A DNA stretch of 59,275 nucleotides from Euryarchaeota archaeon UBA433 (GCA_002495535.1 DAFX01000038.1:2439-61713); one strand, 5' to 3'; shown: positions 19,118 through 41,756, counted from the first letter of the stretch. Translations and numbers: made by a program. Notes: a model not told the origin generated them from the sequence alone.

Positions 19118-19152
19118 ACTTCATAGGTAGGACCTCGTGGGACGGAATGCAA

Positions 19153-19230: not shown

Positions 19231-19244
19231 GCATTCATGTGAAT

Positions 19245-20502: not shown

Positions 20503-20649
20503 GATTCACCGTGCGCTAAGGGCCTCAAGAACCTGCCCAATAGCAACTGGCTCGCTGACGAGTTCTGCATAAAGGGCGGTTGCAAGCGTTGTTGTTTGAG
20601 AGGTTTGATAGGTGGAAGGCATAGCATACGAGCCGTGGCAGGCATCTCT

Positions 20650-22283: not shown

Positions 22284-22308
22284 TGAACCACGCTGGCAAA
22301 GTCACTTC

Positions 22309-22416
22309 ATGCTCGGAGATGACTTGCTGACCTCAATTTGCCCTCATTGTGGATTTTTGCTTGGTGCCTTTATTCCTGGGATGCCATGCCCAGAATGTGG
22401 TGAACCGCTGCTTTAG
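22309..22416 (+). CDS. Possible 35-aa zinc-ribbon peptide
   Basis: MLGDDLLTSICPHCGFLLGAFIPGMPCPECGEPLL has CPHC...CPEC. It is short and overlaps the convergent gene's stop, so the call is weak. Confidence 0.25.
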   Translation: MLGDDLLTSICPHCGFLLGAFIPGMPCPECGEPLL

Positions 22417-25894: not shown

Positions 25895-26350
25895 ATGACC
25901 AACGACAACATCCTACCCGAAATTGAAGCCTCTGCCCACTGTGACGGACCATGCGGCGTCTACGACCCTGCTAGCGCTCGAATTGCTGGAGAAGCAGTTC
26001 AATCGATGACCAAGAAAATGCTTGCACTCGAATACCCAAAGGTGTTCAGTTCCGAATCCATGGCGTCCTACCTCAACACCATGAGCCGCTACGCAGCCAT
26101 CAAGGACGAGGAAGCACAGAAGTGCAAGCATGAATTGCTTGTTTTGTGGACTGATTTCTTCAAGCCACAGCACTTGGATGCCCACCCAGAACTTCACACC
26201 ACCTTCTGGCAAGCAGCAAAACTTTGCAGCGCATGCAAGGTTGAAGTTTCAGCAGTGCACGCTCAAGAGCTCATGGACGCTATCGAAGCAATTCATCACA
26301 TGTTCTGGGAGATCAAGGGCCGAGAAGTCCCTTGGATCCGTGCAAGTTGA
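25895..26350 (+). CDS. sodN: Nickel superoxide dismutase precursor
   Basis: A 14-aa propeptide (MTNDNILPEIEASA) is followed by the Ni-hook HCDGPCGVYDP. Confidence 0.9.
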   Translation: MTNDNILPEIEASAHCDGPCGVYDPASARIAGEAVQSMTKKMLALEYPKVFSSESMASYLNTMSRYAAIKDEEAQKCKHELLVLWTDFFKPQHLDAHPELHTTFWQAAKLCSACKVEVSAVHAQELMDAIEAIHHMFWEIKGREVPWIRAS

Positions 26351-27635: not shown

Positions 27636-30600
27636 ATGGGGTCGGCTGGGAGCGTGCGTTTTCATGCGGTCGCGATGGTGACCTTGTTTGTTCTCTCTAC
27701 TCTTTTGCTCGGCTACACCCCATCCGATGCCTCGAGTTTAGGGGCCCAACAAAATGCTCACGAAGCGGTGACATTGGGCCAAGCAGAATCCATTACGATC
27801 GGTTCCTTTCCCGATGGGGCAAGCACCAAGGTCGAACTGGAGATCCCAGATGGTGAAGCGATTCAAGGCATAGATATCGATGTTGAACACGCCCGTCTAC
27901 AATCGTCTATGGCCGCTTCGTGGACCGAATCAAACGACTTCTCAAACGGGGCAGTGTATGACGGCATGGACGTCAATGGTTCTTCTCTAAGCATTCTCCC
28001 TCAGGGTTGGGAGTGGGATTTCGAAAACGCCAATCACGGCTGGACCCTTGGTTCCCCTGCATGGCTTTGGGGCTTTGACACCAGTCTTGGCCAAGCAACT
28101 AGCGTGAGCAGCGGAACAAAGGCCATTTACACCTACAACGGAAATTATCCAAACAATATGGGTTCAACGATTTGGGCCACATCCCCTGTGATGGATTGTT
28201 CTTCGTGCTCAGGGTCATGGGACTTGGATTTCATGAAGCGCCTCGGCGTTGAAAGTTCCTCCTGGGACCATGCTTATGTTTCCGTAAAGAGCACCAATGG
28301 CAACTGGGTCAATGTCTATTCAAATTCGGGTTCTGTCAACGACGGTTCCATGACTTCACAAACTATTTCGATCACCAATTATGTTGCCGGCAACGCAAAT
28401 TTCCAAGTTCGTTTCGGGATTGGAACCACGGACAGTTCGGTGACCTACACCGGTTGGAACGTGGACGATGTATCGGTCTTGCCGACCGCAAGCGGTGTCT
28501 CCTCAGGTGAGGGCAACTGGACTTCAGCGGCGTTCGGACCCAGCCAATTTGGTCAAGGCGAAAACAAGGCCTACGGTTACCTTCACATCGATGCGGTCAT
28601 ACCAGCTAACTCTGTGTTCGAATGGCGCCTTCTCGATGCCGTGACGCTTCAACCCGTAGCTGGCTTTGAACACATGACTGGGGTCAGTGTAGATCTCGGT
28701 GTGGTCGATTGGACCATGCATCCGTTGGTTCGCTTGGACCTCCACATGCAAAGCGGTTCGATGGGCATTCCAACGGTTCATGGCTTCCATTTTAACGGGA
28801 TCTTGTTCGAAGACTTTGATCAAGATCCAACGAATCAAGGGTGGCAATTGCAGAGCCAAACTTGGTCTCCAGGCCAACTCAGCGGCAGTGGCAGCGCCGT
28901 CTCTCCAATTTACAATGTGCGGAGTGGTTTTGGCGGCATCCTTTCCAACAGCGTCCTAAGTGGCTCCGCAGTGCTTGAGGCAACGGTCGATGGCGGCTTA
29001 ACATGGGACACGATCACGCCCGGGGTCCGTCACCTGTTCGATGGACCAGAGTTCTCCGCACAACTCCGTTTGACCTCCTCCGGTGGCTCGTGGACCCTCG
29101 ACACGTTAGACATTGAATTAATTCGCACGAGTGTGGTTGATGATCTGCGTTTCGATGTTGCCCTCGATGGCGTTGCAGACTGGTCGATGGCCCTGCCAGA
29201 AGTAGGACGGTTAGGGATCCAAGATGGGTTCCTTGACGGTTCGCTATGGCAGAGTCGTGCTTCATCGCCAAGCGCACCAGCACTGTATGATTTGGCGTTG
29301 CCTCTTGATGGTGTGAATGCCTTTGAATTTGCAGTTGCATCACCCGCAGCCCCCTCGGTCAACCCGACGGTAAAACTCTCCGTCGACGGTCAAGAAGTCG
29401 TGAGCAAGAGCGTACCAACGATTCAAGATTTGACCTTTGTTCGTTTGACTTCATCAGAACTTGCAAACCTCAACAGTGCACTGTCTCAGGCCGTTGCAAC
29501 TCACGGCCCGAAAGGGTTGCCCTTGGCTTCAGTTGGTATTTCTATAGGTTCCTCCTCTTCGATGAACTCCTTTGTGGCAGGCGGAATTTTCGCTCCCTAT
29601 GACGGTGCGCTGAGCATGGCCTTCACGGCAAGCGACCCGTTGGTGGTCGCCTTGAACAATGAATTGACATCGCAAACTGCGATTGGTGGGGTTAAGACGA
29701 TCAGCATGCCAATTCGAATGGGCGCAACGGGTGCGATCTCCATAACCGTCGATCAAATCAACACTCAAAGTTCAGTGGACCCAGTCTCCATTCAGGTGAG
29801 CAATGTAAGCGATACTTTCGTTGCTTCAACCGAATGGATTGAAGTGAGCAGCACCTTTGATTTCGCTCCTCTTGGAGTGACTGATGCTGCTTCATACGTC
29901 AAAACTAACGGTTGGTCCGTGGTTCTACAACTCCAAGGCTTGGTTCGAAGTTCTCACATTACCTGTCCATTTGTCTCACTTCCAGCTGAGGGCAACCTTG
30001 GTTGTTCAACCCAAGGCGCTCCAATGGTCTGGTCGGATAATGGAGCCCTCGGCTCCAAGCAAATCACTGGAAGTGGTTCCTTCCTTCAAATCGACCACAG
30101 GTTCAAATTCACGGAACAATGGGATGACGAAGATTCATTGACGCTTTCAGTGAACCTCATATCGCCTTCCGGGCCAATGATTCCGGTGAGTATGAACTAC
30201 GGCCTTGGCGATGCACAAGGCGTGGAGAACGATGTCCAACTCACATCGTGGCGTTCGGTCAATCAAGTTGGAGTTGGGACCGAACTTGCCCACCCATACC
30301 TCCACCCCGGTGAAGTGGTCACCATCGAGGCTGATTTGGACTTTGAAGGGCTCGCAAATTCTCCTTCGCCTCGCTCGGGAAGCGTCGATGTCTGTTTCTA
30401 TGTAGATGACGTTCAGAATCAATGCACAAGCGTGTACAATCGTGGTGTTGCATCCTTCCCGTGGAACGTTCCTTCCGGCAAACAGAGCGTGGACCTTCGA
30501 ATCGAACTGGTCCCACTGCAAGGGCAAAGCGTCAGTTACGCTGTTTCAAACACTGCAACGTTCAACTTCGATGTGATTGCACCAGAATTGCTGGGTATGA

Positions 30601-32687
30601 ACGTGGCAACTTTTGATCATATGGATGCGGGTCCAAACACCGCCCTTGAATTCCGCATTGCGGACCGTCCAGTCCTACCATCTCATGCCTATGTTCACAT
30701 GTGGCGCTCATGGTTGGACGACGCCAACATGGATGGAATCATGGACGCTGAGGAAGTGTCTATTCTGGAATTGCAAGTACCTGAAAACAGAAGTCAAGTT
30801 CAGGCAGATTACCTTTACAGTTTTGATTCTTCTTCCTACCAATCCGGCGCTATGATGCGAGGTTGGCTTGACGTAGCTGACTCAGCGGGCAACCCTATGC
30901 TTGCTTCTGGCACAATAGAATCGCCTTTGTTTAACCTCCAAATCAACAATGACGGCGCCCCTCAACTCGGTTCCACACCCGCAACTTGGAACACCGATGG
31001 TGAGGCCTGGTTGCACCCGGGTGAACACAACTTGCTTAGCGTCCCTGTCTGGGATATGAATGGAATTTCCGACCTGGCGACAATCGAAATCGACCTCGCA
31101 AGCAACCGCAACACGCCGGTTTTCGTTTCCTGGAACGCTACAACCAACCTGTGTGAAAGCAACAATATCTTTGTTGAAATTGAATCTTGCTTGCTGGAAG
31201 CTGTGAGCAGCGAGGATGTGTTTTCTACCGAGGGTATGTTTCACGTGAATTTCTCCCTTGAATGGGGCTTTGATCCCGATGTGAGTTTGAAACGAACGCC
31301 GTCGGTTCTCGTTCACGATCGTTCTGGGCAATCCAACGTCGCCAGCCTACCATTACTTGATTGGCGGTTCTCAGGCGAATTTGAAATCCCTCAAACAAGC
31401 ATGTCCTTTGATGTTGAGGGCACACCCATGGACGCCTTGGGCACATGGATTCAGCCTCGCTCAGAAATAGGCGTGAGCGGAGATTTAGTTTGGTACCGTT
31501 CTCAACATCCAGTTGTTCAATCCGTTGATCTGCAGGTCGATATCGGCGGTACAGAGTCTGTCATGGAATCAATAAATGGTTCGTTTTCCGACACCATCAC
31601 AGCCCCGCTCTCACCTGGCACCTACGGGCTCACAACCTCACTCTCAGATCCTCCGAACGGTGCCATTGACCGAACAGAACCCGCTCCATTTGCATATTTC
31701 ATCGTCGACCCTCAGGCCCCAAGTGTTGTAGGGGTTGCCTCACCACCTGTCAGTGGTGTCATCGAAGAATCCTCGTGGGCTGATTTGAAGTTCGAGATCA
31801 TGATCGATGAGGAAGACCGATTGAATGAAGAAAGCCTCACGCTGAACTGGGCTGTCCATGAAGAGGGTCTTGGTTTGTCAAGTCCGATCATCGTCAACGG
31901 CTCAGTCATGCTCGAGGTGGTTGGCGGCAGGGCTTACGGTTCGATGATCCCTACAGAGGCTCAGTTGAACCTCGATGAGCAGTTGACCACCACAATGCGC
32001 TCAAAAGCCCTCGAATTAAGAATTTACGTCACGGGTTCAGATGTTGCAGGTTACCCAATGGTGCCGATTTTCAACGATCTCGATGCGCCCTTATCCGTTT
32101 GGGCTCTCGAGCAACGGGTTGCAGAATACACCTTCCTTGATCCTGGCATGAAGCCGTCAAAAGATCTGGCCGAAGGCGATGTTGTCACCTTGGCTGTGAC
32201 CATTGAAAACAACGGCAGGGCTGATGGTTTGGCTCAAATGTTTGTGGAACGCGTTGAAAGCAACGGGGCAAGAACTCGAATTGACGCTCGGGAAATCCAA
32301 ATTCCAGCTGGCGGGCAATTGGAATACAGCAAGGATTGGATGCCGGATCGCTCTGGCACAATGTGGATTGAATACCACATTATCAGTGGGCCTTCGGCTC
32401 AAACAAACACGGTGTTTGTTGATGAGCCAAGAACTGAAGGGGTTCTTGGAAGTGTGGCTGCCGTCAACCCGGTTCTTTTAATCATCATCTTTTTGCTGAG
32501 CGTATCCCTCGTAGCGGTCTTGTTGTTTGGCCTCCAATCCCCTCAACCGAAGAATTGGAACGTCGAGCAGAGCAAGGCCGTTGACAAGGCACTGCCGACA
32601 TTATCCAAACCAGTGGATGCCCCAGAATCAGGCCCCTACGGCGCTGAACAAGCGAGTTCTTCCCCTGGCGAAAACCCGTACCAGTGA
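27636..32687 (+). CDS. Giant (1683 aa) secreted surface protein: MAM/choice-of-anchor-J-like N-terminal module, long beta-rich body, CARDB-like domain, TM anchor, cytoplasmic tail
   Basis: Signal peptide MVTLFVLSTLLLGYTPSDA, WEWDFENANHGW...GWNVDDVSVLP, CARDB-like DLAEGDVVTLAVTIENNGRADG...IQIPAGGQLEYS, and TM helix VNPVLLIIIFLLSVSLVAVLLFGL. Confidence 0.8.
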   Translation: MGSAGSVRFHAVAMVTLFVLSTLLLGYTPSDASSLGAQQNAHEAVTLGQAESITIGSFPDGASTKVELEIPDGEAIQGIDIDVEHARLQSSMAASWTESNDFSNGAVYDGMDVNGSSLSILPQGWEWDFENANHGWTLGSPAWLWGFDTSLGQATSVSSGTKAIYTYNGNYPNNMGSTIWATSPVMDCSSCSGSWDLDFMKRLGVESSSWDHAYVSVKSTNGNWVNVYSNSGSVNDGSMTSQTISITNYVAGNANFQVRFGIGTTDSSVTYTGWNVDDVSVLPTASGVSSGEGNWTSAAFGPSQFGQGENKAYGYLHIDAVIPANSVFEWRLLDAVTLQPVAGFEHMTGVSVDLGVVDWTMHPLVRLDLHMQSGSMGIPTVHGFHFNGILFEDFDQDPTNQGWQLQSQTWSPGQLSGSGSAVSPIYNVRSGFGGILSNSVLSGSAVLEATVDGGLTWDTITPGVRHLFDGPEFSAQLRLTSSGGSWTLDTLDIELIRTSVVDDLRFDVALDGVADWSMALPEVGRLGIQDGFLDGSLWQSRASSPSAPALYDLALPLDGVNAFEFAVASPAAPSVNPTVKLSVDGQEVVSKSVPTIQDLTFVRLTSSELANLNSALSQAVATHGPKGLPLASVGISIGSSSSMNSFVAGGIFAPYDGALSMAFTASDPLVVALNNELTSQTAIGGVKTISMPIRMGATGAISITVDQINTQSSVDPVSIQVSNVSDTFVASTEWIEVSSTFDFAPLGVTDAASYVKTNGWSVVLQLQGLVRSSHITCPFVSLPAEGNLGCSTQGAPMVWSDNGALGSKQITGSGSFLQIDHRFKFTEQWDDEDSLTLSVNLISPSGPMIPVSMNYGLGDAQGVENDVQLTSWRSVNQVGVGTELAHPYLHPGEVVTIEADLDFEGLANSPSPRSGSVDVCFYVDDVQNQCTSVYNRGVASFPWNVPSGKQSVDLRIELVPLQGQSVSYAVSNTATFNFDVIAPELLGMNVATFDHMDAGPNTALEFRIADRPVLPSHAYVHMWRSWLDDANMDGIMDAEEVSILELQVPENRSQVQADYLYSFDSSSYQSGAMMRGWLDVADSAGNPMLASGTIESPLFNLQINNDGAPQLGSTPATWNTDGEAWLHPGEHNLLSVPVWDMNGISDLATIEIDLASNRNTPVFVSWNATTNLCESNNIFVEIESCLLEAVSSEDVFSTEGMFHVNFSLEWGFDPDVSLKRTPSVLVHDRSGQSNVASLPLLDWRFSGEFEIPQTSMSFDVEGTPMDALGTWIQPRSEIGVSGDLVWYRSQHPVVQSVDLQVDIGGTESVMESINGSFSDTITAPLSPGTYGLTTSLSDPPNGAIDRTEPAPFAYFIVDPQAPSVVGVASPPVSGVIEESSWADLKFEIMIDEEDRLNEESLTLNWAVHEEGLGLSSPIIVNGSVMLEVVGGRAYGSMIPTEAQLNLDEQLTTTMRSKALELRIYVTGSDVAGYPMVPIFNDLDAPLSVWALEQRVAEYTFLDPGMKPSKDLAEGDVVTLAVTIENNGRADGLAQMFVERVESNGARTRIDAREIQIPAGGQLEYSKDWMPDRSGTMWIEYHIISGPSAQTNTVFVDEPRTEGVLGSVAAVNPVLLIIIFLLSVSLVAVLLFGLQSPQPKNWNVEQSKAVDKALPTLSKPVDAPESGPYGAEQASSSPGENPYQ

Positions 32688-32737
32688 ATTGGATCTGCTA
32701 GCGAAGGGTTTGAATCCTCGACGGTGAAGGCCTTCTT

Positions 32738-33040
32738 GGAGGGAGTAGGAGGATCGCTGACAGAGTTCGACTCTGAGGAAAGTCCCCTCTCCACAGTGCA
32801 GACGGCTTACACAAGTAAGAGAACAGAAATGGTCAGGTCAATGCAGCAGAAACGAACGATGCAAGGTGTGTACAATGACGTTGAAAGACAGAGATTGCCT
32901 TGTGGTCGATGAGACGAGCAACCCCGTCGGAGCAAGTCCAAACAGTCCCGTCGAAGCGGCACGCCGAGGGACAGGTAGGATGCTAAGTTGAATGCGGTCA
33001 CCGAGAGGTAACAGAAAGGGGCTTACTCCCTACTCCCTCC
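32738..33040 (+). ncRNA. rnpB: RNase P RNA (archaeal type-A-like)
   Basis: A 12-bp terminal helix pairs GGAGGGAGTAGG (32738-32749) with CCTACTCCCTCC (33029-33040). The universal CR-I GAGGAAAGTCCCC, GGAGCAAGTCCAAACAG (CR-IV-like) and ACAGAAAGGGGCTTAC (CR-V, P4 3' strand) are all present in the correct order. Confidence 0.85.
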
Positions 33041-33054
33041 ACTCTCGTTGCGCT

Positions 33055-35925
33055 TCAATGTTCAAGCACTGCGTCCAGCGGTTTCATCGAGATTGGCGAT
33101 GCTAAAGCAATGCCGTCCCCGTAGTCTCGCCAATCTTCTTCTCCGAGCAATTTGCTGCGAGCAGTGTGCTCGAGCGTGATCACTGCAGGGAGCAAGAACG
33201 CACTTGTGACGAAAGCAAAGAAAATCAGCAAACACATGATCATGAAGAAATTCTCGAGGCCGGGGAACGCAGCAAGGAACCCAGCAGCAATTCCAGAAAT
33301 CGTCGTAATTGTCGTTTCAAAAATGGTCTGACCAGTTTCTTCGATGGCGTTCGCTATGCCCGTCGGTGTTTCGCCTTCTTCCTGAATGCGATGCATCACG
33401 TGAATTGAATCATCCACCCCGATACCGAACACAATCGTTCCAATCATGGCGGTAAAGATGTTCACGTTGACATCGCCACTCTGCATGAGCAGAGGTTGCC
33501 AAAGAATGACAACAGCAACCGGGATCATCGTGTAAATACCAAGCCGTGGCGAACGGAAGACAATGGCCAACACGACGGTCAACAACAACAAGGTCACGAT
33601 GGTGGTCAAACTTTGTGTGTCGTGAATACCATCATTGATGTCAAGCGAAACAGGTAGCCCGCCTGTAAGTAAAGAAGTACTTGTTTTTGCCACTTCGGGC
33701 TCTTCGGAGAGCAATCCATCAATTTCATCTCGAAGCTCCCCTGCTACATTGAGGTTCATATACGGCTGAGTGACGTAGACGATGGCTTTTGTTCCCGCTT
33801 CGTTCAACAGCATCGAGCGAACTTCTTCGGTCAAGGTGTCAAACACGGCGTTGACCATGTCCTTTCTAAGCCCCTTACGACCTTCAGGTCCGGTCAATTC
33901 CAGACCGAGCCAAACGTTGCATTGGATTGGATCATTGCTTTCCCAGCACGGATCGTGAAGCAGATCCCAAAGACTGCCTTCGTAGAGCGTCACACCATCG
34001 GTTAAGGTGATGGTTGCTGGAATGGTTCTCAGGAAGGTGATGATGCTGGTGGTGTTGGTTTCATCGACCTGGTCGATTTGGTTTTCGAGTGCATCGATGG
34101 CGTCCAACACGGGCAGGTCTCTGATGTTCTCGGTGTTGTTCGCTTGCGCTTCTGCAGTGCGTTCCTCGGCATTAAAGATGAACAATGAAGTCTGACCGCC
34201 GCTGAATTCTCGTGAATACTTAGCAAGTGAGTCCAGCGATGCAATGCCATCAGGCGCTTCTGAAGATCCGGTGATGGGTTCGTCCATTTTGTCCAGATTC
34301 GCAACGCCATAGGCAGTCACACTGCCTGAAACCAGCAGGATGACTAAGAACCACTTGACTGGCCAAGTGCCGATGTTTTTCCACATTGAGGGGTTGGTTC
34401 TTTTGCTGAATTTGAGCAACCAAGCAAGCGTCGGGACCAAAATGATGCTGAAGATGAGTGTCGATGTGATGCCGATCACCAGGGTGATACCCACTGAACG
34501 GATTGGGGAAATGGGGACGATCGTCGGGGCGATGAGCACAGAGAAACCAATCACAGTCGTCATGGCGGACAAGAACACCGCCACGCCCGTTGAACGGGTC
34601 ATTTCGAGCACACAGTCTCGATAGAAATTGATGTCCCATAAGTCGGGAACCGGTTGCAAAGCCTCGCCTGAACGTCGCCGTCGAGCATTTTCATCGTTGG
34701 CTTTGTCGATTTCTTTACGCCGTACCTCTTCGATGCGATTGACCATATGCAAGGCATAATCGACGCCTAAACCAATTAAAATTGGGAATGTTGCAACAAT
34801 CATCGGGGTGAGGGTGATGTCAAGGATCACCGAACTTCCAAAAGTGACTGCAAGCGCCATCACAATGGGGGTCCCCGTAATCACGACCACCTTTGCCGAT
34901 CGATGCAGTGCGGTGATGACCAACACTGTGAATAAAATCGACCATGGCAAAATCATCAAGAGGTCTTCGTAGATTGCGTCGGATATGTCTTCGAGAACCT
35001 TAGTCAGTCCTGTCACCGTCATCTCCGTTTCCTGATATTCAGTTGGCCGATCATCGATGACGGCTTGGAAATGGGCTAGAAGTTCTGAAAAGTCTTCGAA
35101 ATCCTTCGTCTCAGAGAGGTCGCTTTTCATGCCAACCAAAATGGCCGCTGTGTCCCAAATACCATCCCCGTCCATGTCGTTGGTGGTGTTACCATCCCCA
35201 TCGCTATCGTAGAAGGGGTCCATATCGTTGGTGTCTTTGAACAAGGCATCGAAACCACCGTCGGATTCCTCGATGATTTGGTCGATTCGCTGCTGGTCTG
35301 GGATTGCATAGCGTCCACCGCCCGGTAGGTCACAATCGACATCGACTGGGATTCGAGTGTTGATGCCGTGGACGCACAGTGAATTGTTGAATCGTCCGTC
35401 TGCTGAGTTCACTTCCTTGATGACCTGTGCTGGTGAAATAATCCAGAGCACACCATCATTTCGCCCATGGTCTTCCTTATCGTAATCAATTCCACGTTGG
35501 GTTGAAGCACCATTTGCATTGTCATCATCGCCCTCAACCCAACTTATTTCTTTGAGGAATTGCTCATTCGTGATGTTTGTTGTAAACGATGGGTTGTCGG
35601 CGTTAGGCGTCTGTATATAGATTACAGCAATGTCCGTTGACCATTCTTCTCGCACTTCGAGAAGCAATTCCGTTGAAGGGGCGCCATCTGGCAAAAAGAT
35701 CTCGACGTCGTCGTCAATCTGTTCTTGAAAATCCAAACCTTGGCTGCCAAAAATACCAGCCACAATCATGAGCAAAACGACGACCATAATTGGGGAAGCG
35801 AGGATGTTTCCGTACATCGAGTCGACTCGACGCATCGATTCATTTTTGAAACGCTTTTGGAACTCCGAAAGAGGTTCTAGGAAACCGGTGAGGAGTTTTC
35901 CTCCATCGCCAGATTCACTTGCCAT
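33055..35925 (-). CDS. RND-superfamily exporter, COG1033/MMPL-like (12 TM, two large extracytoplasmic domains)
   Basis: The motif GLGVDYALHMVNRIEE is duplicated as GIGVDDSIHVMHRIQEE in two TM bundles, with large hydrophilic loops after TM1 and TM7. Confidence 0.8.
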   Translation of the reverse strand: MASESGDGGKLLTGFLEPLSEFQKRFKNESMRRVDSMYGNILASPIMVVVLLMIVAGIFGSQGLDFQEQIDDDVEIFLPDGAPSTELLLEVREEWSTDIAVIYIQTPNADNPSFTTNITNEQFLKEISWVEGDDDNANGASTQRGIDYDKEDHGRNDGVLWIISPAQVIKEVNSADGRFNNSLCVHGINTRIPVDVDCDLPGGGRYAIPDQQRIDQIIEESDGGFDALFKDTNDMDPFYDSDGDGNTTNDMDGDGIWDTAAILVGMKSDLSETKDFEDFSELLAHFQAVIDDRPTEYQETEMTVTGLTKVLEDISDAIYEDLLMILPWSILFTVLVITALHRSAKVVVITGTPIVMALAVTFGSSVILDITLTPMIVATFPILIGLGVDYALHMVNRIEEVRRKEIDKANDENARRRRSGEALQPVPDLWDINFYRDCVLEMTRSTGVAVFLSAMTTVIGFSVLIAPTIVPISPIRSVGITLVIGITSTLIFSIILVPTLAWLLKFSKRTNPSMWKNIGTWPVKWFLVILLVSGSVTAYGVANLDKMDEPITGSSEAPDGIASLDSLAKYSREFSGGQTSLFIFNAEERTAEAQANNTENIRDLPVLDAIDALENQIDQVDETNTTSIITFLRTIPATITLTDGVTLYEGSLWDLLHDPCWESNDPIQCNVWLGLELTGPEGRKGLRKDMVNAVFDTLTEEVRSMLLNEAGTKAIVYVTQPYMNLNVAGELRDEIDGLLSEEPEVAKTSTSLLTGGLPVSLDINDGIHDTQSLTTIVTLLLLTVVLAIVFRSPRLGIYTMIPVAVVILWQPLLMQSGDVNVNIFTAMIGTIVFGIGVDDSIHVMHRIQEEGETPTGIANAIEETGQTIFETTITTISGIAAGFLAAFPGLENFFMIMCLLIFFAFVTSAFLLPAVITLEHTARSKLLGEEDWRDYGDGIALASPISMKPLDAVLEH

Positions 35926-35998
35926 GGATGTGGCATGATGAGCAGGGTCTTGAATGATGCTCTGTCAAACGCTGCGATTGCGCTGCTCTCAAACCACA

Positions 35999-36943
35999 TC
36001 AGTCGAGTCCGAATTCACGAACAAGCAGATGGCGGAGGAAGCCTCGAGCGCTCTGAAGCACCAAGCCGGTTGCCATGAGCGACAGGCCAAGCACACCAAT
36101 CCACACTGCGGAAAGACCCGGGCCAACGATGCTGTCAATTTGGGTGGTGACGCCTTGTGCGACGTTCAGACCCATTGCAGCCCCTGTTGCCAACAGGCCA
36201 ATGCCGGGCAGTCCAAGGACCAGAAGTGGTTTCTTTTGAGAAAGAGAAAGCATGGCCCAGGTCAACACGGTGAAACCATGAGATACCGCGGTAAAGTTTG
36301 AGCCCTTGGGGACATCATATCGGATCACGGTTGGTATTTCGAGAATTTTCAATTGCTTTTCTCGAGCATCTTCAAGCATTTCTAGGGACAATTCCATGCC
36401 CTCTGAATCGAACCGCAGGCGTTCTAAAGCAGTGCTAGAGAACGCTCTGAACCCTGATTGTGTGTCTTTGATGCCCAGGTCGCTTGAGAGGTTGCTTGCT
36501 GCTGTGATGACCTTGATACCAAGGCGGCGGTAGGCTGGCATGTCTGTTCCGCCACCACCGTTGATGAAGCGAGAACCAATGGCGAAATCGGCCTCTCCAG
36601 AGAAAATAGGTTGGAGGAGTTTGGGAATGTCCCCAGCTTCGTGTTGTCCATCGCTGTCAAGCACTACAAGTGCAGTTGCGTTCATTTCTCTTGCTTGGAT
36701 GAACAGCGTCTTGAGTGCAGCGCCGTACCCTCGATTTGAACGATGGCGGTAGACGATTGCCCCACATGCTTCTGCGATTCGAGCGCTTGAATCAGAAGAC
36801 CCGTCGTCGATACAGATCACCGCGTCAACATGGCGCAGTGCGGTGGTTACAACGGTCCCAATGGTTTCTTCTTCGTTGTACATGGGCATACCAGCAACAA
36901 CGAAAGAGGGAGGCGTTTGCTCCTGTTTCACCATGGTTTTCAC
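35999..36943 (-). CDS. Family 2 glycosyltransferase with C-terminal TM helices
   Basis: VVAGMPMYNEEETIG, ICIDDGSSDSS, VVLDSDGQH, DTQSGFRAF, plus two C-terminal helices. Confidence 0.85.
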   Translation of the reverse strand: MKTMVKQEQTPPSFVVAGMPMYNEEETIGTVVTTALRHVDAVICIDDGSSDSSARIAEACGAIVYRHRSNRGYGAALKTLFIQAREMNATALVVLDSDGQHEAGDIPKLLQPIFSGEADFAIGSRFINGGGGTDMPAYRRLGIKVITAASNLSSDLGIKDTQSGFRAFSSTALERLRFDSEGMELSLEMLEDAREKQLKILEIPTVIRYDVPKGSNFTAVSHGFTVLTWAMLSLSQKKPLLVLGLPGIGLLATGAAMGLNVAQGVTTQIDSIVGPGLSAVWIGVLGLSLMATGLVLQSARGFLRHLLVREFGLD

Positions 36944-37117: not shown

Positions 37118-37372
37118 TCAGTCTTGAAGTTGGCTCAAGGTGGTCACAGCTCGCTCACCGTTGAGGACCTTTGTCAAGGCATTCAGCGAGATCACGAGGG
37201 GCACGTAGGCCTGACCATCGCTTGTCACATAGGTTGAACAATCACCAAAGGCGCTTGTGTTGATCGACACCTTGAGGGCACCACCAGCGTTGCTTCTTCG
37301 GACGTAACCGACCAGAAGGTTGTTGTTCATATCTTGGGCTTCATTTGTTTGTTGTTGGTTTTTTTTGCTCAT
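37118..37372 (-). CDS. Small hypothetical protein (84 aa) with a Q/N-rich N-terminus
   Basis: Trimmed to Met16 (MSKKNQQQTNEAQDMNNN...). The beta-rich core GYVRRSNAGGALKVSINTSAF...YVPLVISLNAL belongs to no family I can assign. Confidence 0.45.
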   Translation of the reverse strand: MSKKNQQQTNEAQDMNNNLLVGYVRRSNAGGALKVSINTSAFGDCSTYVTSDGQAYVPLVISLNALTKVLNGERAVTTLSQLQD

Positions 37373-37494
37373 GTTTTCACATCCGTACACCGCTTGGCGA
37401 TGCACAAATTGAACCATTTCCGTCTTCGGTCATAAGACCCATGGTATCGTCGTGTGGAGCAAAGCCTCATACGCAGGCCACCATTGTTCAAGCC

Positions 37495-38457
37495 ATGCGA
37501 GCGTTGGTAACAGGCGGTGCAGGATTCATCGGCTCCCATTTGATTGACCGTTTGATTGGGCGTGGTGACGAGGTGGTTGTCATCGATAACCTCTCCTCGG
37601 GGAATTTGGAATTCATTCAGGCCCACCTCGACAGTGGGAAGGCTACTTTAATCCAGGCTGACATCACCAATTTCGATGACGTAGAGGCTGCCATGAAAGG
37701 GATTGATTGCGTGTTTCACCTTGCAGCCAACCCGGATATTCGTCTTGGAACCCAAATCACCGATACCGATCTCAAGCAAGGTACCCTCGCGACCTACAAC
37801 ATCGTAGAGGCCATGCGGTTGAACGACGTGCCAACCATCGCCTTTGCTTCCTCATCAGTGGTTTATGGTGAAGATGCACCCATGCCAACACCTGAAAACC
37901 ACGGCCCGTGCCTGCCAATTTCACTCTACGGTGCCAGTAAGCAAGCTGGTGAGGGACTGATCAGCAGTTGGGTTGGTACCTTCGGACTTCAGGCCTACAT
38001 CTTCCGCTTTGCCAACATTATCGGAACCCGAGGTACACACGGAGTCATCTTCGATTTCATTCACAAGTTGAAGAAAGATCCATCTCGTCTCGAGGTGCTC
38101 GGCAACGGCTTGCAAGAAAAATCATACATGGAAGTGGGCGATTGCGCCGATGCCATCCTTCACGTCATGTCCTGCAAGGACGAACCTTTGAACCTCTACA
38201 ATCTTGGCAGCCATGATACCGCCTCTGTCCGCCGCATCGCCGAGATTGTTGTGGACACAACTGGATGCCATGATGCGAGCATAGAGTACACCGGTGGCGA
38301 CCGAGGTTGGGCGGGGGATATCCCTCGAGCCATGCTTGGTATAGAGAAGATGCTTTCAACAGGATTTGATGTGCGTTACAACAGCGAAGAAGCCATCAGG
38401 CACACCGCACTCGCACTGATTGAAGAAATTGGTCTAGATAAGGAGATGAACTCATGA
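37495..38457 (+). CDS. NAD-dependent epimerase/dehydratase (UDP-sugar 4-epimerase/decarboxylase family)
   Basis: MRALVTGGAGFIGSHL, SSSVVYG, YGASK (YxxxK). Confidence 0.85.
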   Translation: MRALVTGGAGFIGSHLIDRLIGRGDEVVVIDNLSSGNLEFIQAHLDSGKATLIQADITNFDDVEAAMKGIDCVFHLAANPDIRLGTQITDTDLKQGTLATYNIVEAMRLNDVPTIAFASSSVVYGEDAPMPTPENHGPCLPISLYGASKQAGEGLISSWVGTFGLQAYIFRFANIIGTRGTHGVIFDFIHKLKKDPSRLEVLGNGLQEKSYMEVGDCADAILHVMSCKDEPLNLYNLGSHDTASVRRIAEIVVDTTGCHDASIEYTGGDRGWAGDIPRAMLGIEKMLSTGFDVRYNSEEAIRHTALALIEEIGLDKEMNS

Positions 38458-39167
38458 AGCAAACCTATGACGATGAAGCAAGCACCCTCAGCGATGCAGC
38501 CTTGAAAATTTCAACCCTGTTTTTTATTGGTATTCTCATCATCGCTTTCACCACAGACGGCATTGCAACTGGAACCGAAGAAGGTGAACGAGCACCGCTT
38601 TTGGACGGGTATGCCTATTCAGGCAACGGCTGGTCATCGTTTGATTTTAGCCAAGAGTTTGATACCACATGGGATGGCAATGTGACCAGCGACTGGGTTA
38701 TGATCGAATTTATGGATACCGACTGCCCATACTGTGTTCGCTCTGCTGAATTGTTTGGTGAAGCATCGACCGCTTTCCACGGTACAAACCCTGAATGGAC
38801 GGGCGCACAAGTAAATTTCTTTGCCAGCGCCACGCAATTGGACATCCAAGGCCATGATTCATCCCGTGCTGAAATCGAAGCTTTCAGGGATAAATCAACC
38901 GGACAGGAGTGTGCTGGTCAGGATTGCGCAAATCGAGACGGTTCAGCGCACACCCTCATCACCTACATCGATGATCTTGACCAAGAAAACATGGACGAAT
39001 GGGGCATTAAAGGAACTCCGACGTACTTCTTAATTCAACCAGACGGCATCATTGCTTGGGTTTCCAACGGTGGGACCAATGTTGGCGACTATGATGGGGA
39101 CGGGGAACAAAACACCTACATCGATGCTATTTTGACACACGTTACACGAGACCAGGATGGTGCTTGA
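38454..39167 (+). CDS. Membrane-anchored thioredoxin-fold thiol:disulfide oxidoreductase (TlpA/ResA-like), CPYC active site
   Basis: N-terminal TM helix ISTLFFIGILIIAF, MIEFMDTDCPYCV, and cis-Pro region GTPTYFLIQPDG. Its start overlaps the epimerase stop (ATGA). Confidence 0.7.
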   Translation: MKQTYDDEASTLSDAALKISTLFFIGILIIAFTTDGIATGTEEGERAPLLDGYAYSGNGWSSFDFSQEFDTTWDGNVTSDWVMIEFMDTDCPYCVRSAELFGEASTAFHGTNPEWTGAQVNFFASATQLDIQGHDSSRAEIEAFRDKSTGQECAGQDCANRDGSAHTLITYIDDLDQENMDEWGIKGTPTYFLIQPDGIIAWVSNGGTNVGDYDGDGEQNTYIDAILTHVTRDQDGA

Positions 39168-39759
39168 AGTGGAGACAACGACCCTTCTTTTGGCCGGCTA
39201 TGGACTGCCAGTGTTGATTGGTTTGCTTTTGATTCTCCCTGGCTCAGAATCGATATTCCTCGGTCTGAGTGATCGCTTTCCTTCACTCAAAAGCCGCAGG
39301 GGCCGAATCCTTTCGGGGCTGAACCTCACGCTTCTTGGTGGCCTTGCAGTTTCTGTTCAAACGCAGTGGATCCACGCCAAGGTCAGTGAAGGGGCTAATT
39401 TTTGCGCCTCAAATACGATCTTTTCGTGCGATGATGTGATTGGCAACGCCAACTACAACACCATGCCAGTCCTCGATGTACCGTGGGGCATGGTTGGCCT
39501 GTGCACGTTTTCTTTGCTCTTGTTCTTCTCCTACGCCTCCTCAAAAGAGCCAACTGCAAGTTGGGTCAAGAATTTCATCGACCTCGGCACATTCATGACG
39601 TTTATCGGTCTTGGTGTCATTGGCTTGCTCGTTTCCTACGAAGTTGAAATGGGCAAGATTTGCCAGTTCTGTACAATGGCTCACATCGCCAATATTGTTG
39701 CCCTTGCTGGATTCGTGCAGTTGCGCATGATGCATGGTGAGAAGGAATGGAACAGCTGA
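39157..39759 (+). CDS. Vitamin K epoxide reductase (VKOR) family protein
   Basis: Loop cysteine pair CASNTIFSC, then GMVG..., and the TM4 redox motif CQFC. It overlaps the upstream gene by 11 nt. Confidence 0.8.
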   Translation: MVLEVETTTLLLAGYGLPVLIGLLLILPGSESIFLGLSDRFPSLKSRRGRILSGLNLTLLGGLAVSVQTQWIHAKVSEGANFCASNTIFSCDDVIGNANYNTMPVLDVPWGMVGLCTFSLLLFFSYASSKEPTASWVKNFIDLGTFMTFIGLGVIGLLVSYEVEMGKICQFCTMAHIANIVALAGFVQLRMMHGEKEWNS

Positions 39760-39775
39760 GGACGGGTGTGATTTT

Positions 39776-40321
39776 ATGGCGAATGAACGAGCCTTTTGGG
39801 GCACCGTTGCCTTAGGTGGAATCATCGCTCTCTTGGTGTTGCTCGGTCAACAGGAAAGCGTGGAAGAGGCAAGCGGACTCTGGTCGACTGCTGATGAACC
39901 AGACCCATTGGCCTTCGTTTGCCTTGATCACGACGGACTTGCTCGCCACGACCATGTCACGCTCAAGATTTTCATTGACGATGAGCAGCAGGTCATCCCA
40001 GGAAGCATCGGCATCAACTCAGGTGTCTGCAATCAAAACGGGGGCAACATGCATGCGGTTCACACGCACAACGATGGCGGCCTTCTTCACATTGAACTCA
40101 ACGATGCGGGTGATGTTCCATTGGGGGTATTTTTTGATATCTGGGGCGTTCATTTTGACGAAACAGGTGTGTTTGATCATCGTGCTAATGAAACGCATGA
40201 GATGTCGATGTATGTGTTCAATTCTGACGAACAAGCATCCGAGGAAAACCGTGTTAATTCGTTCGATGATTACCTCTTATTGAACGGTGAGACCATCGAA
40301 GTCCACTACAAAGCACGCTGA
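39776..40321 (+). CDS. Membrane-anchored extracytoplasmic protein with His-rich motif (conserved hypothetical often seen beside DsbA/VKOR genes)
   Basis: N-terminal anchor FWGTVALGGIIALLVLL, then HDHVTLKIFIDDEQQVIPGSIGI...MHAVHTHNDGGLLHIE...LGVFFDIWG. Confidence 0.55.
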   Translation: MANERAFWGTVALGGIIALLVLLGQQESVEEASGLWSTADEPDPLAFVCLDHDGLARHDHVTLKIFIDDEQQVIPGSIGINSGVCNQNGGNMHAVHTHNDGGLLHIELNDAGDVPLGVFFDIWGVHFDETGVFDHRANETHEMSMYVFNSDEQASEENRVNSFDDYLLLNGETIEVHYKAR

Positions 40322-40621
40322 TTAAGGCGTAAAGCAACCCTCGAACAGAAGCGCATCAACCTCTGTTTCGACCAGTTCCATTCTGAGCACCGTCACATCG
40401 ATTCGCTCTTCACCACTGTATGTTCGCTTCAACTCCGCGAGTAAATGCTGCTGAACACCCGTGTGATCTTCGCCCCAAAGCATGCTCAGGTGATGGTGGT
40501 CAACCCCCTGAATGGTCACTCGATATTCAACAACCCACTCCTTGAGCGGTTCATTGTCTTCCCATGTCACATCTTCCCATGTTTTTGCCATGGTATTATT
40601 TTGTTCTTCGAGGGTTATCAA
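40322..40621 (-). CDS. Hypothetical protein
   Basis: 99-aa ORF with plausible composition and no recognised motif. The start may be Met11. Confidence 0.4.
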   Translation of the reverse strand: MITLEEQNNTMAKTWEDVTWEDNEPLKEWVVEYRVTIQGVDHHHLSMLWGEDHTGVQQHLLAELKRTYSGEERIDVTVLRMELVETEVDALLFEGCFTP

Positions 40622-40691
40622 TGCATCGGGTCAATGCGTCGGTTATTTTCCATTTTATGGCATCAAAAGGTAACAATCAGGAGGTAAATTC

Positions 40692-41651
40692 CTATTTGTC
40701 GTCTTTTGTTTCCCTTTTTTGGAAAATGAGGAGCCCTGTTGCTACTGCTGTGGCCAAGACGATCCATACTGGGTTCCACGCATCGTCCACGCTTCGTCCA
40801 CGGTAGGCGAATTCCAACGCTCCAAAACTTCCGAGATCTTCCCGTTGCTCAAGCGAACTGAATGCTTGTTCATGAATCAGCACCACACTGAACGAATCTA
40901 GGGCTTCGAATTGAATCGAAAAATCGCTCGTGCATCCGGTTGAGGCAGTCGCTTCAACCAGGCCCAATGTTGTCGTAACTGAATTGTTTGCAATCAAACA
41001 TTCAGACGTCCCAATGACGACACGATCCCTTGTGGCCTCGCCAGGGTTGATGGTGTCCTTCGGTACCTCCTTGCCGTGTTCTAAAAGCAAGAACGTGAGT
41101 TGAGAGCCATTGCTTGCATGCCCTTCGAACCCTGAAATAGAGGCGGTGATCATTGTTCCCTGTTGCTGGATTGTGAATTTTAATTTGGTGTAAGTTTGTC
41201 GGGTCACTTCCTCATCGAGGATGTCCCGCTGAACATCAACCCAAGCGTCAGTCCCCGTGCGATAGAAGCCGCCTTCAACCATGAAGGTGGGCGTTCCGGG
41301 GAGGTCAGCATTGATTGCGCGCAATCGTTCGATCCGATGTTGTGCGGCCTCTGGAGCAAAGGCGTCTTGTCCATCGTTTGGGTGGTAGGCCATCAGTGCG
41401 ATTCGAGAACCATGTGAATCTGCGACACCGACCAAGTATGGGTCGATTTCAGCACAGGACACGCACCACGTGGTGGTCAATTCTTCGACGAGCAGACTGC
41501 GCCCACCAAAATTCGTTTCGATGCCCTCTTCCAGAGGAGTTCCGACATCGACAACCATCGCCTGAGCTAAAATGGGTGCTTGAAGCAGGCCAACGGCGAG
41601 GAGCAGAACAAACCAGCTTTTACGCTGGGCCCTCCTTGGTTGACCTGCCAT
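40692..41651 (-). CDS. Secreted thioredoxin-fold protein (WCVSC) with C-terminal TM anchor and short basic tail
   Basis: Trimmed to Met45 (MAGQPRRAQRKSWFVLLLAVGLLQAPILAQA, a signal peptide). Also VEELTTTWCVSCAEIDP, GTPTFMVEG, and the C-terminus WIVLATAVATGLLIFQKRETKDDK. Confidence 0.6.
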   Translation of the reverse strand: MAGQPRRAQRKSWFVLLLAVGLLQAPILAQAMVVDVGTPLEEGIETNFGGRSLLVEELTTTWCVSCAEIDPYLVGVADSHGSRIALMAYHPNDGQDAFAPEAAQHRIERLRAINADLPGTPTFMVEGGFYRTGTDAWVDVQRDILDEEVTRQTYTKLKFTIQQQGTMITASISGFEGHASNGSQLTFLLLEHGKEVPKDTINPGEATRDRVVIGTSECLIANNSVTTTLGLVEATASTGCTSDFSIQFEALDSFSVVLIHEQAFSSLEQREDLGSFGALEFAYRGRSVDDAWNPVWIVLATAVATGLLIFQKRETKDDK

Positions 41652-41756
41652 GCTCCGGGGAAGAGGGCGACCTCCTTCATCCCTTTGTTCAAGATGGATT
41701 TGAGGCGAGGTTTCTTCAACAGGTCGAATTCCAGTGGGGTTTGCGGAGGGAGTCAA

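Follow-up and report, generated by a model that had tools for sequence, protein, structure and literature searches.

Two genes for giant surface proteins, each one gene away from a gene for an RND-superfamily exporter, are found in a window of 59,275 nt from Euryarchaeota archaeon UBA433, a marine Group II archaeon (all positions are those of this whole stretch). These giants and exporters may be an outsized version of an archaeal system that is still uncharacterised, an HAE3 exporter plus a CARDB-anchored partner, analogous to the MmpS-MmpL pairs of mycobacteria, in which a lipid or amphiphile would be moved rather than the giant. This is the best explanation of the locus, held at somewhat under an even chance. 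The original prediction, that giant and exporter form a functional unit, gained from the conservation of the neighbourhoods and from comparable pairs in haloarchaea, and lost from the genes that intervene within each pair, the equally syntenic housekeeping flanks, and a lineage that has no giants. Within the Poseidoniaceae, the link between giant and exporter is purely one of gene position.

Giant 1 is an ORF of 1683 aa on the plus strand (27636-32687). It faces exporter 1, an ORF of 956 aa on the minus strand (33055-35925) encoding an RND-superfamily protein of MMPL/HAE3 type, which is followed outward by a glycosyltransferase, GT2, probably of the polyprenyl-phosphate sugar synthase type (35999-36943, minus strand, 314 aa). 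About 10 kb away, exporter 2, an RND transporter of MMPL/HAE3 type (45988-48591, plus strand, 867 aa), faces giant 2, a surface protein of 1532 aa (49224-53822, minus strand). These coordinates and lengths agreed with those given earlier when they were re-computed. The convergent geometry that had been described for both pairs is present, but direct adjacency is not. The 367-bp spacer between giant 1 and exporter 1 is occupied by the archaeal RNase P RNA gene (32741-33037, plus strand; RF00373, 230.5 bits, E = 1.2e-67, model positions 1-288 of 288), and a DUF2240 gene (48592-49182, minus strand; PF09999 at 4e-11) lies between exporter 2 and giant 2. Because the genes of each pair are convergent and have an unrelated gene between them, giant and exporter are not co-transcribed here. 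Beyond the GT2 gene are three envelope-related neighbours, all on the plus strand and all syntenic across the Poseidoniaceae loci compared: an NAD-dependent sugar epimerase (37345-38457; Pfam), and a membrane-anchored thioredoxin-like CxxC protein (38454-39167) and a VKOR (39157-39759), both recognised from Pfam and from the positions of their cysteines and TM helices.

Giant 1 is found in Poseidoniaceae alone, where its orthologues keep to a length of 1600-1720 aa. The hydropathy profile has the signal peptide, single C-terminal TM helix and tail that had been predicted: a signal-like helix at aa 7-25, a TM helix at aa 1613-1631 and a tail of 52 aa. An AF2 fragment of the protein has a helix at fragment residues 753-773. 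The ectodomain consists of jelly-roll/MAM-like head domains and then a beta-sandwich stalk, with three conserved Cys pairs. A Pfam scan of giant 1 gave no match. The AF2 models had pLDDT values of 80.1 (aa 31-880) and 84.8 (aa 860-1683), and Foldseek searches with them returned Ig/MG-domain arrays of a generic kind and jelly rolls like those of MAM or reelin, and nothing else.

Two domains of giant 1 had been named from the sequence, and both assignments are weak. The first is a weak MAM/choice-of-anchor-J-like segment at aa 127-281 (28014-28478, plus strand; NF038128, AF2/Foldseek). The fold likeness stands, with Foldseek matches of the aa 31-880 model to MAM-containing ectodomains and reelin jelly rolls, at low TM-scores; the profile scores fall below their cutoffs, NF038128 (choice-of-anchor J) giving E = 0.0054 and 16.9 bits against a cutoff of 30, and InhA-like MAM giving a weak match in 3 of 26 orthologues (best E = 2e-4). 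The head resembles choice-of-anchor J or MAM in its modelled fold, and its scores do not establish membership. The second is the membrane-proximal CARDB-like beta-sandwich (aa ~1497-1572), which together with the TM helix spans 32124-32528 on the plus strand (hhalign, AF2). Here hhalign places aa 1497-1572 in register on giant 2's CARDB region, but a CARDB match itself is weak and seen in only 3 of the 26 orthologues. This domain and helix are a candidate exporter-docking module.

Giant 2 belongs to an orthologue family of 1476-1596 aa and has, by hydropathy, a signal-like helix, a TM helix at aa 1390-1408 and a tail of 124 aa. It has a Kelch beta-propeller at aa ~100-350 (Pfam and PDB Kelch matches), a stalk in common with giant 1 at aa 664-1326, and a weak CARDB domain at aa 1274-1374 (PF07705, 19.5 bits against a gathering cutoff of 22.7); a precomputed PF07705 match is carried by many of the orthologues. 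The corresponding stalk module of giant 1 is at aa 882-1550 (30279-32285, plus strand). The two stalks align over 612 columns (hhalign probability 99.6%, E = 1.2e-24), and the invariant Cys pair C1173/C1185 of giant 1 aligns with C963/C976 of giant 2. By this profile alignment, the giants are paralogues over a stalk of ~650 aa made of beta-sandwich domains, and the two pairs cannot be counted as independent copies on the giant side, as had been proposed.

The exporters have a different history. Both passed the PF03176 gathering score of 20.5, exporter 1 at 1.6e-25 (90.2 bits) and exporter 2 at 1.8e-34 (119.6 bits), and their assignment by profile to the RND superfamily and MMPL (TC 2.A.6.7) is firm. 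HAE3 is a best NCBIfam match only, with TIGR00921 scores below the curated cutoff of 351.9 in exporter 1 (1.8e-49, 168.5 bits) and exporter 2 (1.6e-74, 251.3 bits). The hydropathy profile of exporter 1 gives TM1, a loop of ~255 aa, TM2-6, TM7, a loop of ~230 aa and TM8-12; that of exporter 2 is similar. Each half of each protein has one copy of a GxGxDxxxH motif (GLGVDYALH and GIGVDDSIH in exporter 1, GLGIDYAIH and GIGIDYSIH in exporter 2). With ~12 TM helices by hydropathy, the MMPL threshold passed and the motif duplicated, the earlier description of exporter 1 was borne out. The two exporters are 25-28% identical, in the TM bundles only. In a neighbour-joining tree, exporter 1 forms its own deep clade and exporter 2 groups with the exporter of an unrelated metagenomic locus, L180. 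The question of recent paralogy or distinct clades is answered by this tree in favour of two deeply separated HAE3 clades; the exporters are not close paralogues. One duplication of a whole pair cannot account for paralogous giants next to such exporters.

From the family and from the nearest solved relative of exporter 1, HpnN (5khn, E = 2e-6), we infer proton-driven export of lipids or amphiphiles as the probable activity of both exporters. The substrates of characterised HAE-type RND pumps are lipids or amphiphiles (PMC6463170). Because of this, and because both giants have Sec-type signal peptides, direct export of the giant by the pump, which had been offered as one possibility, is unlikely.

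A role in secretion of a different kind can be imagined. SecDF is a member of the RND superfamily that aids the passage of proteins through SecYEG, and HAE3-type exporters might likewise, driven by protons, help to pull very long proteins through the channel during secretion. The substrates would be giant Sec-dependent proteins, and there are weak SecD/SecF matches within the TM region in exporter 2, in the exporter-1 orthologue of the lineage without giants (P0361), and in some relatives. The matches are well short of the cutoffs and reflect the common RND TM fold, with exporter 2 scoring 39.7 bits against 148.6 for TIGR00916 and 17-21 bits against the SecDF equivalogs (cutoffs 500-1037); exporter 1 had no match to SecD/SecF models. 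The best matches are to HAE3, HpnN and MMPL lipid transporters, and the exporters persist where there are no giants. A SecDF-like function is highly improbable.

The arrangement of the first pair is strongly conserved. In 59/59 Poseidoniaceae species loci with enough flank, giant 1 and exporter 1 converge, which bears out the expected conservation in related genomes. The neighbourhoods of both pairs persist down to 29-33% identity between giants (29% for the second pair). The housekeeping genes at the flanks (RpiA, tRNA-Lys, AspRS, FtsJ, TruD) keep their places no less well than giant 1 and exporter 1 do. This equal conservation, with the convergent orientation and the unrelated genes between, is what would be seen if there were synteny with no function behind it: the exporters would be old housekeeping lipid/amphiphile exporters, and the giants independent adhesins or envelope (S-layer-like) proteins that occupy two permissive intergenic sites. 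We consider this, the main rival explanation, a real possibility, short of probable.

The distribution of the exporters is in keeping with such independence. A diverse sister lineage has the same backbone and both exporters, but no giant lies within 10 kb of them in any of its 83 loci (80/80 metagenomic loci and L096-98). In giant-less loci (L096, L139 and L172), the RNase P RNA gene is in the same place beside exporter 1, and in this lineage the DUF2240 gene still adjoins exporter 2; the thioredoxin-like and VKOR genes are missing from part of it. Since the sister lineage keeps both exporters without giants, the exporters are not dependent on them. Rearrangement at the locus is also tolerated, both at a breakpoint beside GT2 and by inversion: in L006 and L007 the block from exporter 1 through GT2, epimerase and thioredoxin-like protein to VKOR is flipped, placing exporter 1 ~5 kb from giant 1, and in L006 the RNase P RNA gene remains with the 3' end of giant 1. 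Further afield, distant relatives of exporter 1 are surrounded by riboflavin, ABCE1 and other unrelated genes, and no CARDB-type partner was seen at the loci of exporter-1-clade relatives in L012, L093 and L094/95. Against mere synteny, paralogous giants each lie within one gene of an anciently diverged HAE3 exporter, an arrangement improbable at random in a genome of ~2 Mb.

The GT2 is another possible partner for exporter 1. It passes PF00535 (3e-23, 83 bits against 23.3), has two C-terminal hydrophobic helices by hydropathy, and sits 73 bp upstream of exporter 1 in the same direction, all in agreement with its earlier description as a membrane GT2. It scored 2e-34 against AglJ (119 bits, equivalog cutoff 325) and 3e-34 against PpgS (118 bits, equivalog cutoff 370), and is likely to be in the class of polyprenyl-phosphate sugar synthases (AglJ, PpgS, Dol-P-hexose synthase, GtrB-like). 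GT2 and exporter 1 could on their own form a unit for glycosylation or glycolipid supply. In this unit the GT2 would make a polyprenyl-phosphate sugar or glycolipid at the cytoplasmic face, the epimerase would supply the nucleotide sugar, and the RND pump would move the product outward; the giants would merely benefit, among other surface glycoproteins. GT2 and exporter 1 are together in 37/73 Poseidoniaceae loci and stay together through the L006 inversion that separates giant 1 from them, and the lineage without giants has no GT2 at the locus. Giant 2 is enriched in N-glycosylation sequons (20-34 observed, ~8-20 in shuffles), with 12 conserved positions. Giant 1 is not (8 observed, 14 expected), however, and in the genus Poseidonia a Zn-ribbon protein replaces GT2 beside exporter 1 (36/73 loci) while giant 1 and exporter 1 are kept. 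No glycosyltransferase is found next to exporter 2 within the window, and to our knowledge none of the archaeal lipid-linked sugar flippase candidates is an RND protein. A supply line of this kind is unlikely to account for the locus.

Independent evidence for an exporter with a CARDB-anchored partner is from other archaea. Among 13 haloarchaeal plasmid loci with HAE3 exporters, 6 have a gene for a CARDB/NEW3 beta-sandwich partner immediately before the exporter gene and in the same orientation, with gaps of 0-27 bp (n=6), and 7 have no partner. The six partners are COG1361/NEW3/CARDB single-pass proteins of 526-1385 aa, with a beta-sandwich array, a C-terminal TM helix and a tail, and with an N-terminal signal-like helix detected in five; their exporters form one clade. 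A literature search found no paper describing this pairing. TetR-type or HTH regulators often adjoin these loci, as they do those of efflux pumps, which along with partners of only ~530 aa is a further point against a SecDF-like helper. At the L180 locus, chosen blind to its gene context, a transporter of the exporter-2 clade is followed after 115 bp by a co-directional gene for a 1669-aa NPCBM_assoc/CARDB protein. Both the haloarchaeal operons, with proteins of the same architecture, and the L180 neighbour tell against synteny without function, although the L180 protein has no C-terminal TM helix. One haloarchaeal exporter relative (H22) is located in an isoprenoid cluster.

The giants have the architecture of these partners, with a signal peptide, a beta-sandwich array, a last CARDB-like domain and a TM helix, and have longer tails (52 and 124 aa); they do not have the haloarchaeal gene arrangement, in which the partner gene immediately precedes that of the exporter, 0-27 bp away and in the same orientation. 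The C-terminal profile of the haloarchaeal partners aligns with both giants in register, including the TM helix, at a probability of 57-60% and E ~1e-4 (for giant 1 against the CARDB/NEW3 and TM end, 60% and E = 9e-5). This likeness is weak and could be that of any beta-sandwich followed by a TM helix. Exporter 2 is in the clade of the L180 exporter, one member of which has a CARDB giant, and exporter 1 is in a different major clade; the trees are neighbour-joining trees, and the gene contexts sampled are very few.

Giant 1 is an all-beta surface protein, secreted through Sec and anchored in the membrane by its C-terminal end. Under the favoured explanation, both giants would be greatly enlarged representatives of a group of CARDB/NEW3 beta-sandwich proteins with one membrane span, whose genes in other archaea are co-transcribed with those of HAE3 exporters. 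The giants themselves would not be translocated by the exporters. The exporter would extract a lipid or amphiphile from the membrane, and given the neighbouring GT2, a polyprenyl-linked sugar or a glycolipid is one possible substrate. On the partner's side, the contact with the exporter would be made by the TM helix and the CARDB-like domain next to the membrane, in the manner of MmpS with MmpL or of periplasmic adaptors with RND pumps, and the remainder of the giant would extend outward from the cell surface. The gene content, the paralogy and architecture of the giants, the pattern of conservation and the operonic pairing in haloarchaea are shown by the analysis; physical interaction, substrate and any coupling at all in Poseidoniaceae are what we infer. 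More broadly, it is conceivable, though we would not call it probable, that a subset of archaeal HAE3 exporters are two-component envelope machines with a dedicated C-terminally anchored CARDB/NEW3 partner, which in Poseidoniaceae has grown into surface giants of 1500-1700 aa with lectin-like (MAM/jelly-roll) or Kelch heads. Archaea would then have their own equivalent of MmpS-MmpL, or of RND pumps and their periplasmic adaptors, and in a family that is among the most abundant planktonic archaea of the ocean, a binding structure on the cell surface would be physically linked to the export of lipids or amphiphiles.

Several known systems share parts of this design. The giants match no solved S-layer protein in sequence or in any specific fold (sequence and Foldseek comparison), and have no PGF-CTERM or other sorting signal. 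Like archaeal S-layer glycoproteins and giant adhesins, they have a signal peptide, long Ig-like arrays, a C-terminal TM anchor, an acidic composition, lengths conserved across each family and, in giant 2, conserved N-glycosylation sequons. The HpnN hopanoid transporter (5khn/6wu0), whose substrate is a lipid, has the same RND fold as the exporters, with 12 TM helices and two extracytoplasmic loops. The similarity of exporter 1 to it is confined to one TM bundle; no hopanoid or isoprenoid genes adjoin exporter 1 or exporter 2, and the archaeon has no outer membrane as a delivery target.

In the MmpS-MmpL systems of mycobacteria (HAE2/HAE3), an MMPL-type RND exporter is likewise encoded with a single-pass membrane protein. 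The genes of the accessory MmpS proteins accompany those of MmpL; MmpS4/5 interact with the matching MmpL4/5, which cannot release their substrate without them, and MmpL substrates are lipids or amphiphiles, not proteins (PMC6463170). The archaeal partners, of 526-1700 aa, have a C-terminal TM anchor where MmpS has an N-terminal one, and are made of DUF11/NEW3/CARDB domains; the giants, the haloarchaeal partners and the L180 partner gave no match to the MmpS family in Pfam scans. In Poseidoniaceae, moreover, the genes are convergent and non-adjacent, and the pairing is known from gene position. The resemblance to MmpS lies solely in how the pair would work. A further comparison is with the haloarchaeal operons of a 'COG1361 S-layer family / NEW3 / CARDB protein' and an MMPL protein, annotated by PGAP on plasmids of Halobacterium, Haloarcula, Natronorubrum and Salinibaculum, which have the same partner architecture and an exporter of the HAE3 family. 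The UBA433 partners differ from these in size (1532-1683 aa, compared with 526-1385 aa), in having MAM-like or Kelch heads, and in being convergent with the exporter and one gene apart from it, where the haloarchaeal partner is upstream on the same strand at 0-27 bp.

All five ORFs of the original prediction are present: giant 1 (27636–32687, +; 1683 aa), exporter 1 (33055–35925, −; 956 aa) and the GT2 glycosyltransferase gene upstream of it (35999–36943, −) in module 1, and exporter 2 (45988–48591, +; 867 aa) and giant 2 (49224–53822, −; 1532 aa) in module 2. Both exporters passed the Pfam MMPL threshold, carry the duplicated GxGxDxxxH motif, and have about 12 TM helices and two large outside loops by hydropathy. 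TIGR00921 (HAE3) was the best model for both, with scores under its curated cutoff, and among solved structures the hopanoid transporter HpnN is the closest to exporter 1. An exhaustive search of 1.8 billion cluster representatives returned only 98 homologues of exporter 1 at E ≤ 1e-30. The host is identified as a member of the Poseidoniaceae (Marine Group II a) by the named sources of homologues nearly identical to the exporters and giants, and by 80 species-level loci in reference genomes. The GT2 is similar to polyprenyl-phosphate sugar synthases (AglJ, PpgS), but no further than the family level; phmmer annotation placed a second GT2 paralogue about 15 kb upstream (19549–20502, −).

The two giants have almost no similarity to each other in BLASTP. 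The profiles of their orthologue families align over 612 columns (probability 99.6%, E = 1e-24), matching aa 882–1550 of giant 1 with aa 664–1326 of giant 2, and because of this alignment the giants are, judged by sequence, paralogues with a common long stalk and different heads. AlphaFold models of giant 1, built with family alignments, are confident and contain jelly-roll/MAM/CBM-like and beta-sandwich domains in the N-terminal 850 aa (pLDDT 80.1) and approximately seven beta-sandwich domains followed by a TM helix in the C-terminal 820 aa (pLDDT 84.8). Foldseek matched both models to generic Ig/MG arrays and jelly rolls only – complement, alpha-2-macroglobulin, reelin repeats and MAM ectodomains – at TM-scores of at most 0.22 over the whole query, with no S-layer match and nothing diagnostic, and giant 1 had no match to PDB sequences at E ≤ 1. 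The MAM/choice-of-anchor-J and CARDB domains originally assigned to giant 1 scored below threshold. Giant 2 has a clear Kelch propeller (Pfam and PDB matches) and a near-threshold CARDB domain.

Lengths are strikingly constant in both giant families, and both have conserved Cys pairs; N-glycosylation sequons are conserved and enriched in giant 2, with no such enrichment in giant 1. Both giants begin with a Sec-type signal helix by hydropathy, and we read them as envelope or binding proteins that are anchored in the membrane and exported by Sec. A SecDF-like role of the exporters is very improbable. A possible extracytoplasmic disulfide-bond module lies at 38454–41783, a side observation that can be set alongside the conserved Cys pairs. 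Its candidate genes encode a membrane-anchored thioredoxin-like protein (CxxC at aa 91–94), a VKOR, a small secreted acidic ORF (39734–40321) and a 363-aa protein (40692–41783, −) that carries a CxxC motif and has hydrophobic helices at both termini.

The convergent orientation of giant and exporter is seen in both modules, and therefore rules out their co-transcription. The predicted adjacency fared less well. An archaeal RNase P RNA gene of full length (32741–33037, +; RF00373, 230 bits) fills the 367-bp spacer of module 1, and exporter 2 and giant 2 of module 2 are separated by a DUF2240 gene. The window flanks are housekeeping genes, and the conserved flank beside giant 1 also encodes a nickel superoxide dismutase, SodN (25895–26350, +), which in Poseidonia loci (L001, 19140–19901) is followed by its S26-type maturation peptidase. 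A scan for Sigma-70 promoters and terminators, a model inapplicable to archaeal promoters, gave shuffle-level counts.

Within the Poseidoniaceae the arrangement is stable. Giant 1 is convergent with exporter 1 in all 59 species loci whose flank extends for 1.5 kb or more, the spacer having a median length of 357 bp, and the order of module 2 (giant 2-DUF2240-exporter 2-RpoL-TruD) is kept down to 29% giant identity. A genome scan with the narrow exporter alignment A6 found Poseidoniaceae and nothing else, all at 69% identity or above. The housekeeping genes of the neighbourhood are equally syntenic: RpiA, tRNA-Lys, SodN, an amino-acid kinase and AspRS, beyond giant 1, are as well conserved as the giant/exporter pair. 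Plain synteny, in which giants and exporters are merely fixed neighbours in a stable backbone, is the main rival explanation, somewhat less likely than the reading favored below. One complete Poseidoniaceae GT2-exporter 1-giant 1-RpiA-AspRS block (L090, CAXQWT010000118.1) is filed under a 'Salipiger bermudensis' MAG, where the contig is probably a binning contaminant.

The genes upstream of exporter 1 are more variable. GT2, epimerase, Trx and VKOR genes are found there in 37 of the 73 loci, as in the window, and in the other 36, from the genus Poseidonia, a gene for a soluble Zn-ribbon protein replaces the GT2 block. Where the giants are 33% identical, the gene order in L008 is that of the window, and in L006 and L007 there is a clean inversion of the exporter 1-GT2-epimerase-Trx-VKOR block, which leaves the exporter 5 kb from the giant and keeps GT2 and exporter 1 together. 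In L006 the RNase P RNA gene accompanies the 3' end of giant 1; in giant-less relatives it is syntenic with exporter 1. A supply line in which GT2 and exporter 1 would serve surface glycoproteins in general fits the inversions better than the Poseidonia loci, and is unlikely.

Both exporters were also found in genomes with no giant beside them. P0361, an exporter 1 orthologue of 1120 aa and 40–47% identity, lies in the same backbone as in the window (AspRS-tRNA-RpiA-RNase P RNA-exporter 1-epimerase-FtsJ-...-TruD-RpoL-exporter 2-DUF2240-HEAT), from which giant 1, giant 2 and GT2 are all absent. TruD is 48% identical to that of the window in this backbone, versus 67–69% in giant-bearing loci, and exporter 2 is 41% identical, versus 57–61%. 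A scan seeded with P0361 returned 80 further metagenomic loci (53–100% identical to P0361), none with either giant within 10 kb. More distant members of the exporter 1 clade are found beside ABCE1 and riboflavin genes (L094/95) or beside a second HAE3 gene (L012), and others, on short contigs, have no giant. The exporters can therefore exist without a neighbouring giant, and both belong to an older backbone. This is in part what the original prediction named as evidence against a functional unit.

Two substitutes for the giants were considered and rejected. The extra 160 or so aa of the giant-less exporter 1 are scattered short insertions and an 82-aa hydrophobic insert between the two halves, not a built-in beta-sandwich replacing the partner. 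The Zn-ribbon (DZR) proteins of Poseidonia and of L012 are soluble, without a TM helix, and have only the zinc ribbon in common; in L012 (6809–11163) such a gene is divergent from two tandem same-strand HAE3 genes, the first of the exporter 1 clade and the second exporter-2-like. The giant-less loci differ in other genes as well. The subgroup closest to P0361 (about 70–100% identity) lacks Trx and VKOR, which many of the more divergent loci (53–60% identity) have. L096 encodes a subtilase (Peptidase_S8 + PPC; 17844–23363) 1.5–3 kb beyond AspRS, of at least about 1970 aa as its C-terminus lies beyond the flank examined, and about 25 other giant-less loci have unlabelled ORFs of 951–1988 aa in its place (e.g. 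L142, 12604–18503). Neither the subtilase nor these counterparts matched the giant-family profiles.

By BLAST scores and in two neighbour-joining trees, exporters 1 and 2 belong to HAE3 clades that are deeply separated, and each exporter has many closer relatives elsewhere. A single duplication of a giant + exporter unit is therefore ruled out, the giants being paralogues and the exporters not close paralogues, and the presence of both exporters in the giant-less backbone also counters it. Nor are the modules independent copies on the giant side, as first proposed, since their giants are paralogous. Even so, two paralogous giants beside two unrelated HAE3 exporters seem hard to ascribe to chance placement in a genome of about 2 Mb.

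Similar pairings were found in other archaea. In L180, whose exporter was selected solely for full-length similarity, a 1669-aa protein of NPCBM_assoc/CARDB repeats is encoded 115 bp after an exporter-2-clade transporter on the same strand. This partner (3036–8045; GC 44%) matches NCBIfam 'choice-of-anchor T' in nine stretches (206 bits, cutoff 70). N-x-S/T sequons are very dense in it, and it lacks a C-terminal TM helix. Among 13 haloarchaeal contexts from a tblastn search of plasmid records, six (Salinibaculum, three Haloarcula, Natronorubrum and Halobacterium) have an upstream same-strand partner 0–27 bp from the MMPL gene, often with a TetR or HTH regulator close by. These partners, of 526–1385 aa, are annotated as "COG1361 S-layer family", "NEW3 domain", "CARDB domain" or hypothetical. 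All six consist of DUF11/NEW3 beta-sandwiches, the last a CARDB/NEW3 domain, then a C-terminal TM helix and a short basic tail, and five have an N-terminal signal-like helix – the layout of the Poseidoniaceae giants. A profile of their C-terminal 260 aa aligns weakly with both giants, in register and across the TM helix (probability 57–60%, E about 1e-4). The other seven contexts have no partner, and their exporters form a sister clade.

Further envelope-protein genes neighbour the haloarchaeal exporters. In L187 (Natronorubrum bangense plasmid, 4544–15716) the CARDB-partner and MMPL pair is convergent with a gene for a right-handed beta-helix protein of >3500 aa, and in Salinibaculum (L181, 1–12218) a PGF-CTERM surface glycoprotein gene comes after the pair, with an STT3 (oligosaccharyltransferase) gene nearby. 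One partnerless context lies in an isoprenoid cluster. In L191 (Halorussus caseinilyticus plasmid, 2008–9176) the HAE3/MMPL gene is flanked by genes whose products are a squalene-cyclase-like prenyltransferase repeat protein, a polyprenyl synthetase and a UbiA prenyltransferase, an archaeal setting for lipid export of the HpnN type.

COG1033/HAE3 exporters do occur together with membrane-anchored proteins that end in a CARDB domain, beyond the window and beyond its order, and to this extent the proposed functional unit gains support. The two adjacencies first offered are weaker evidence for it than they seemed: the genes are not adjacent, the giants are not independent, housekeeping genes are equally syntenic, and the exporters of a sister lineage do without the giants. 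Within the window, it is neighbourhood and architecture that suggest the link.

Archaeal HAE3 exporters are widespread, and no defined substrate or partner was found for any. If the CARDB-anchored proteins are true partners, they would be a new class of accessory subunit for the RND pumps of organisms that lack an outer membrane, and would account for a large group of genes whose only annotation is "COG1361 S-layer family protein". Marine Group II archaea are uncultured, and such a partnership would offer a first way into the function of two surface proteins that are among their largest and best conserved. The idea can be tested directly in haloarchaea that are amenable to genetics, e.g. with the Halobacterium salinarum or Haloarcula plasmid pairs. 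If the association is synteny only, the loci document family-specific insertion or loss of two paralogous giants in a stable backbone.

We tentatively favor, at somewhat short of an even chance, the reading that the window encodes an uncharacterised archaeal system of exporter and partner, in a variant whose partners are giants. The exporter would move a lipid or amphiphile, possibly a polyprenyl-linked sugar or glycolipid made by GT2; the CARDB-TM end of the giant would dock on the exporter, and the giant itself would leave the cell through Sec. Literature on HAE3/COG1033/MMPL in archaea, COG1361, CARDB/RND and the Poseidoniales S-layer yielded no description of such a pairing, and the general pairing of HAE3 exporter and CARDB partner appears undescribed. 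RND exporters that work with an accessory membrane protein are already known as a general kind, and MmpS-MmpL (PMC6463170) is the analogue for how the archaeal exporter and partner may work.
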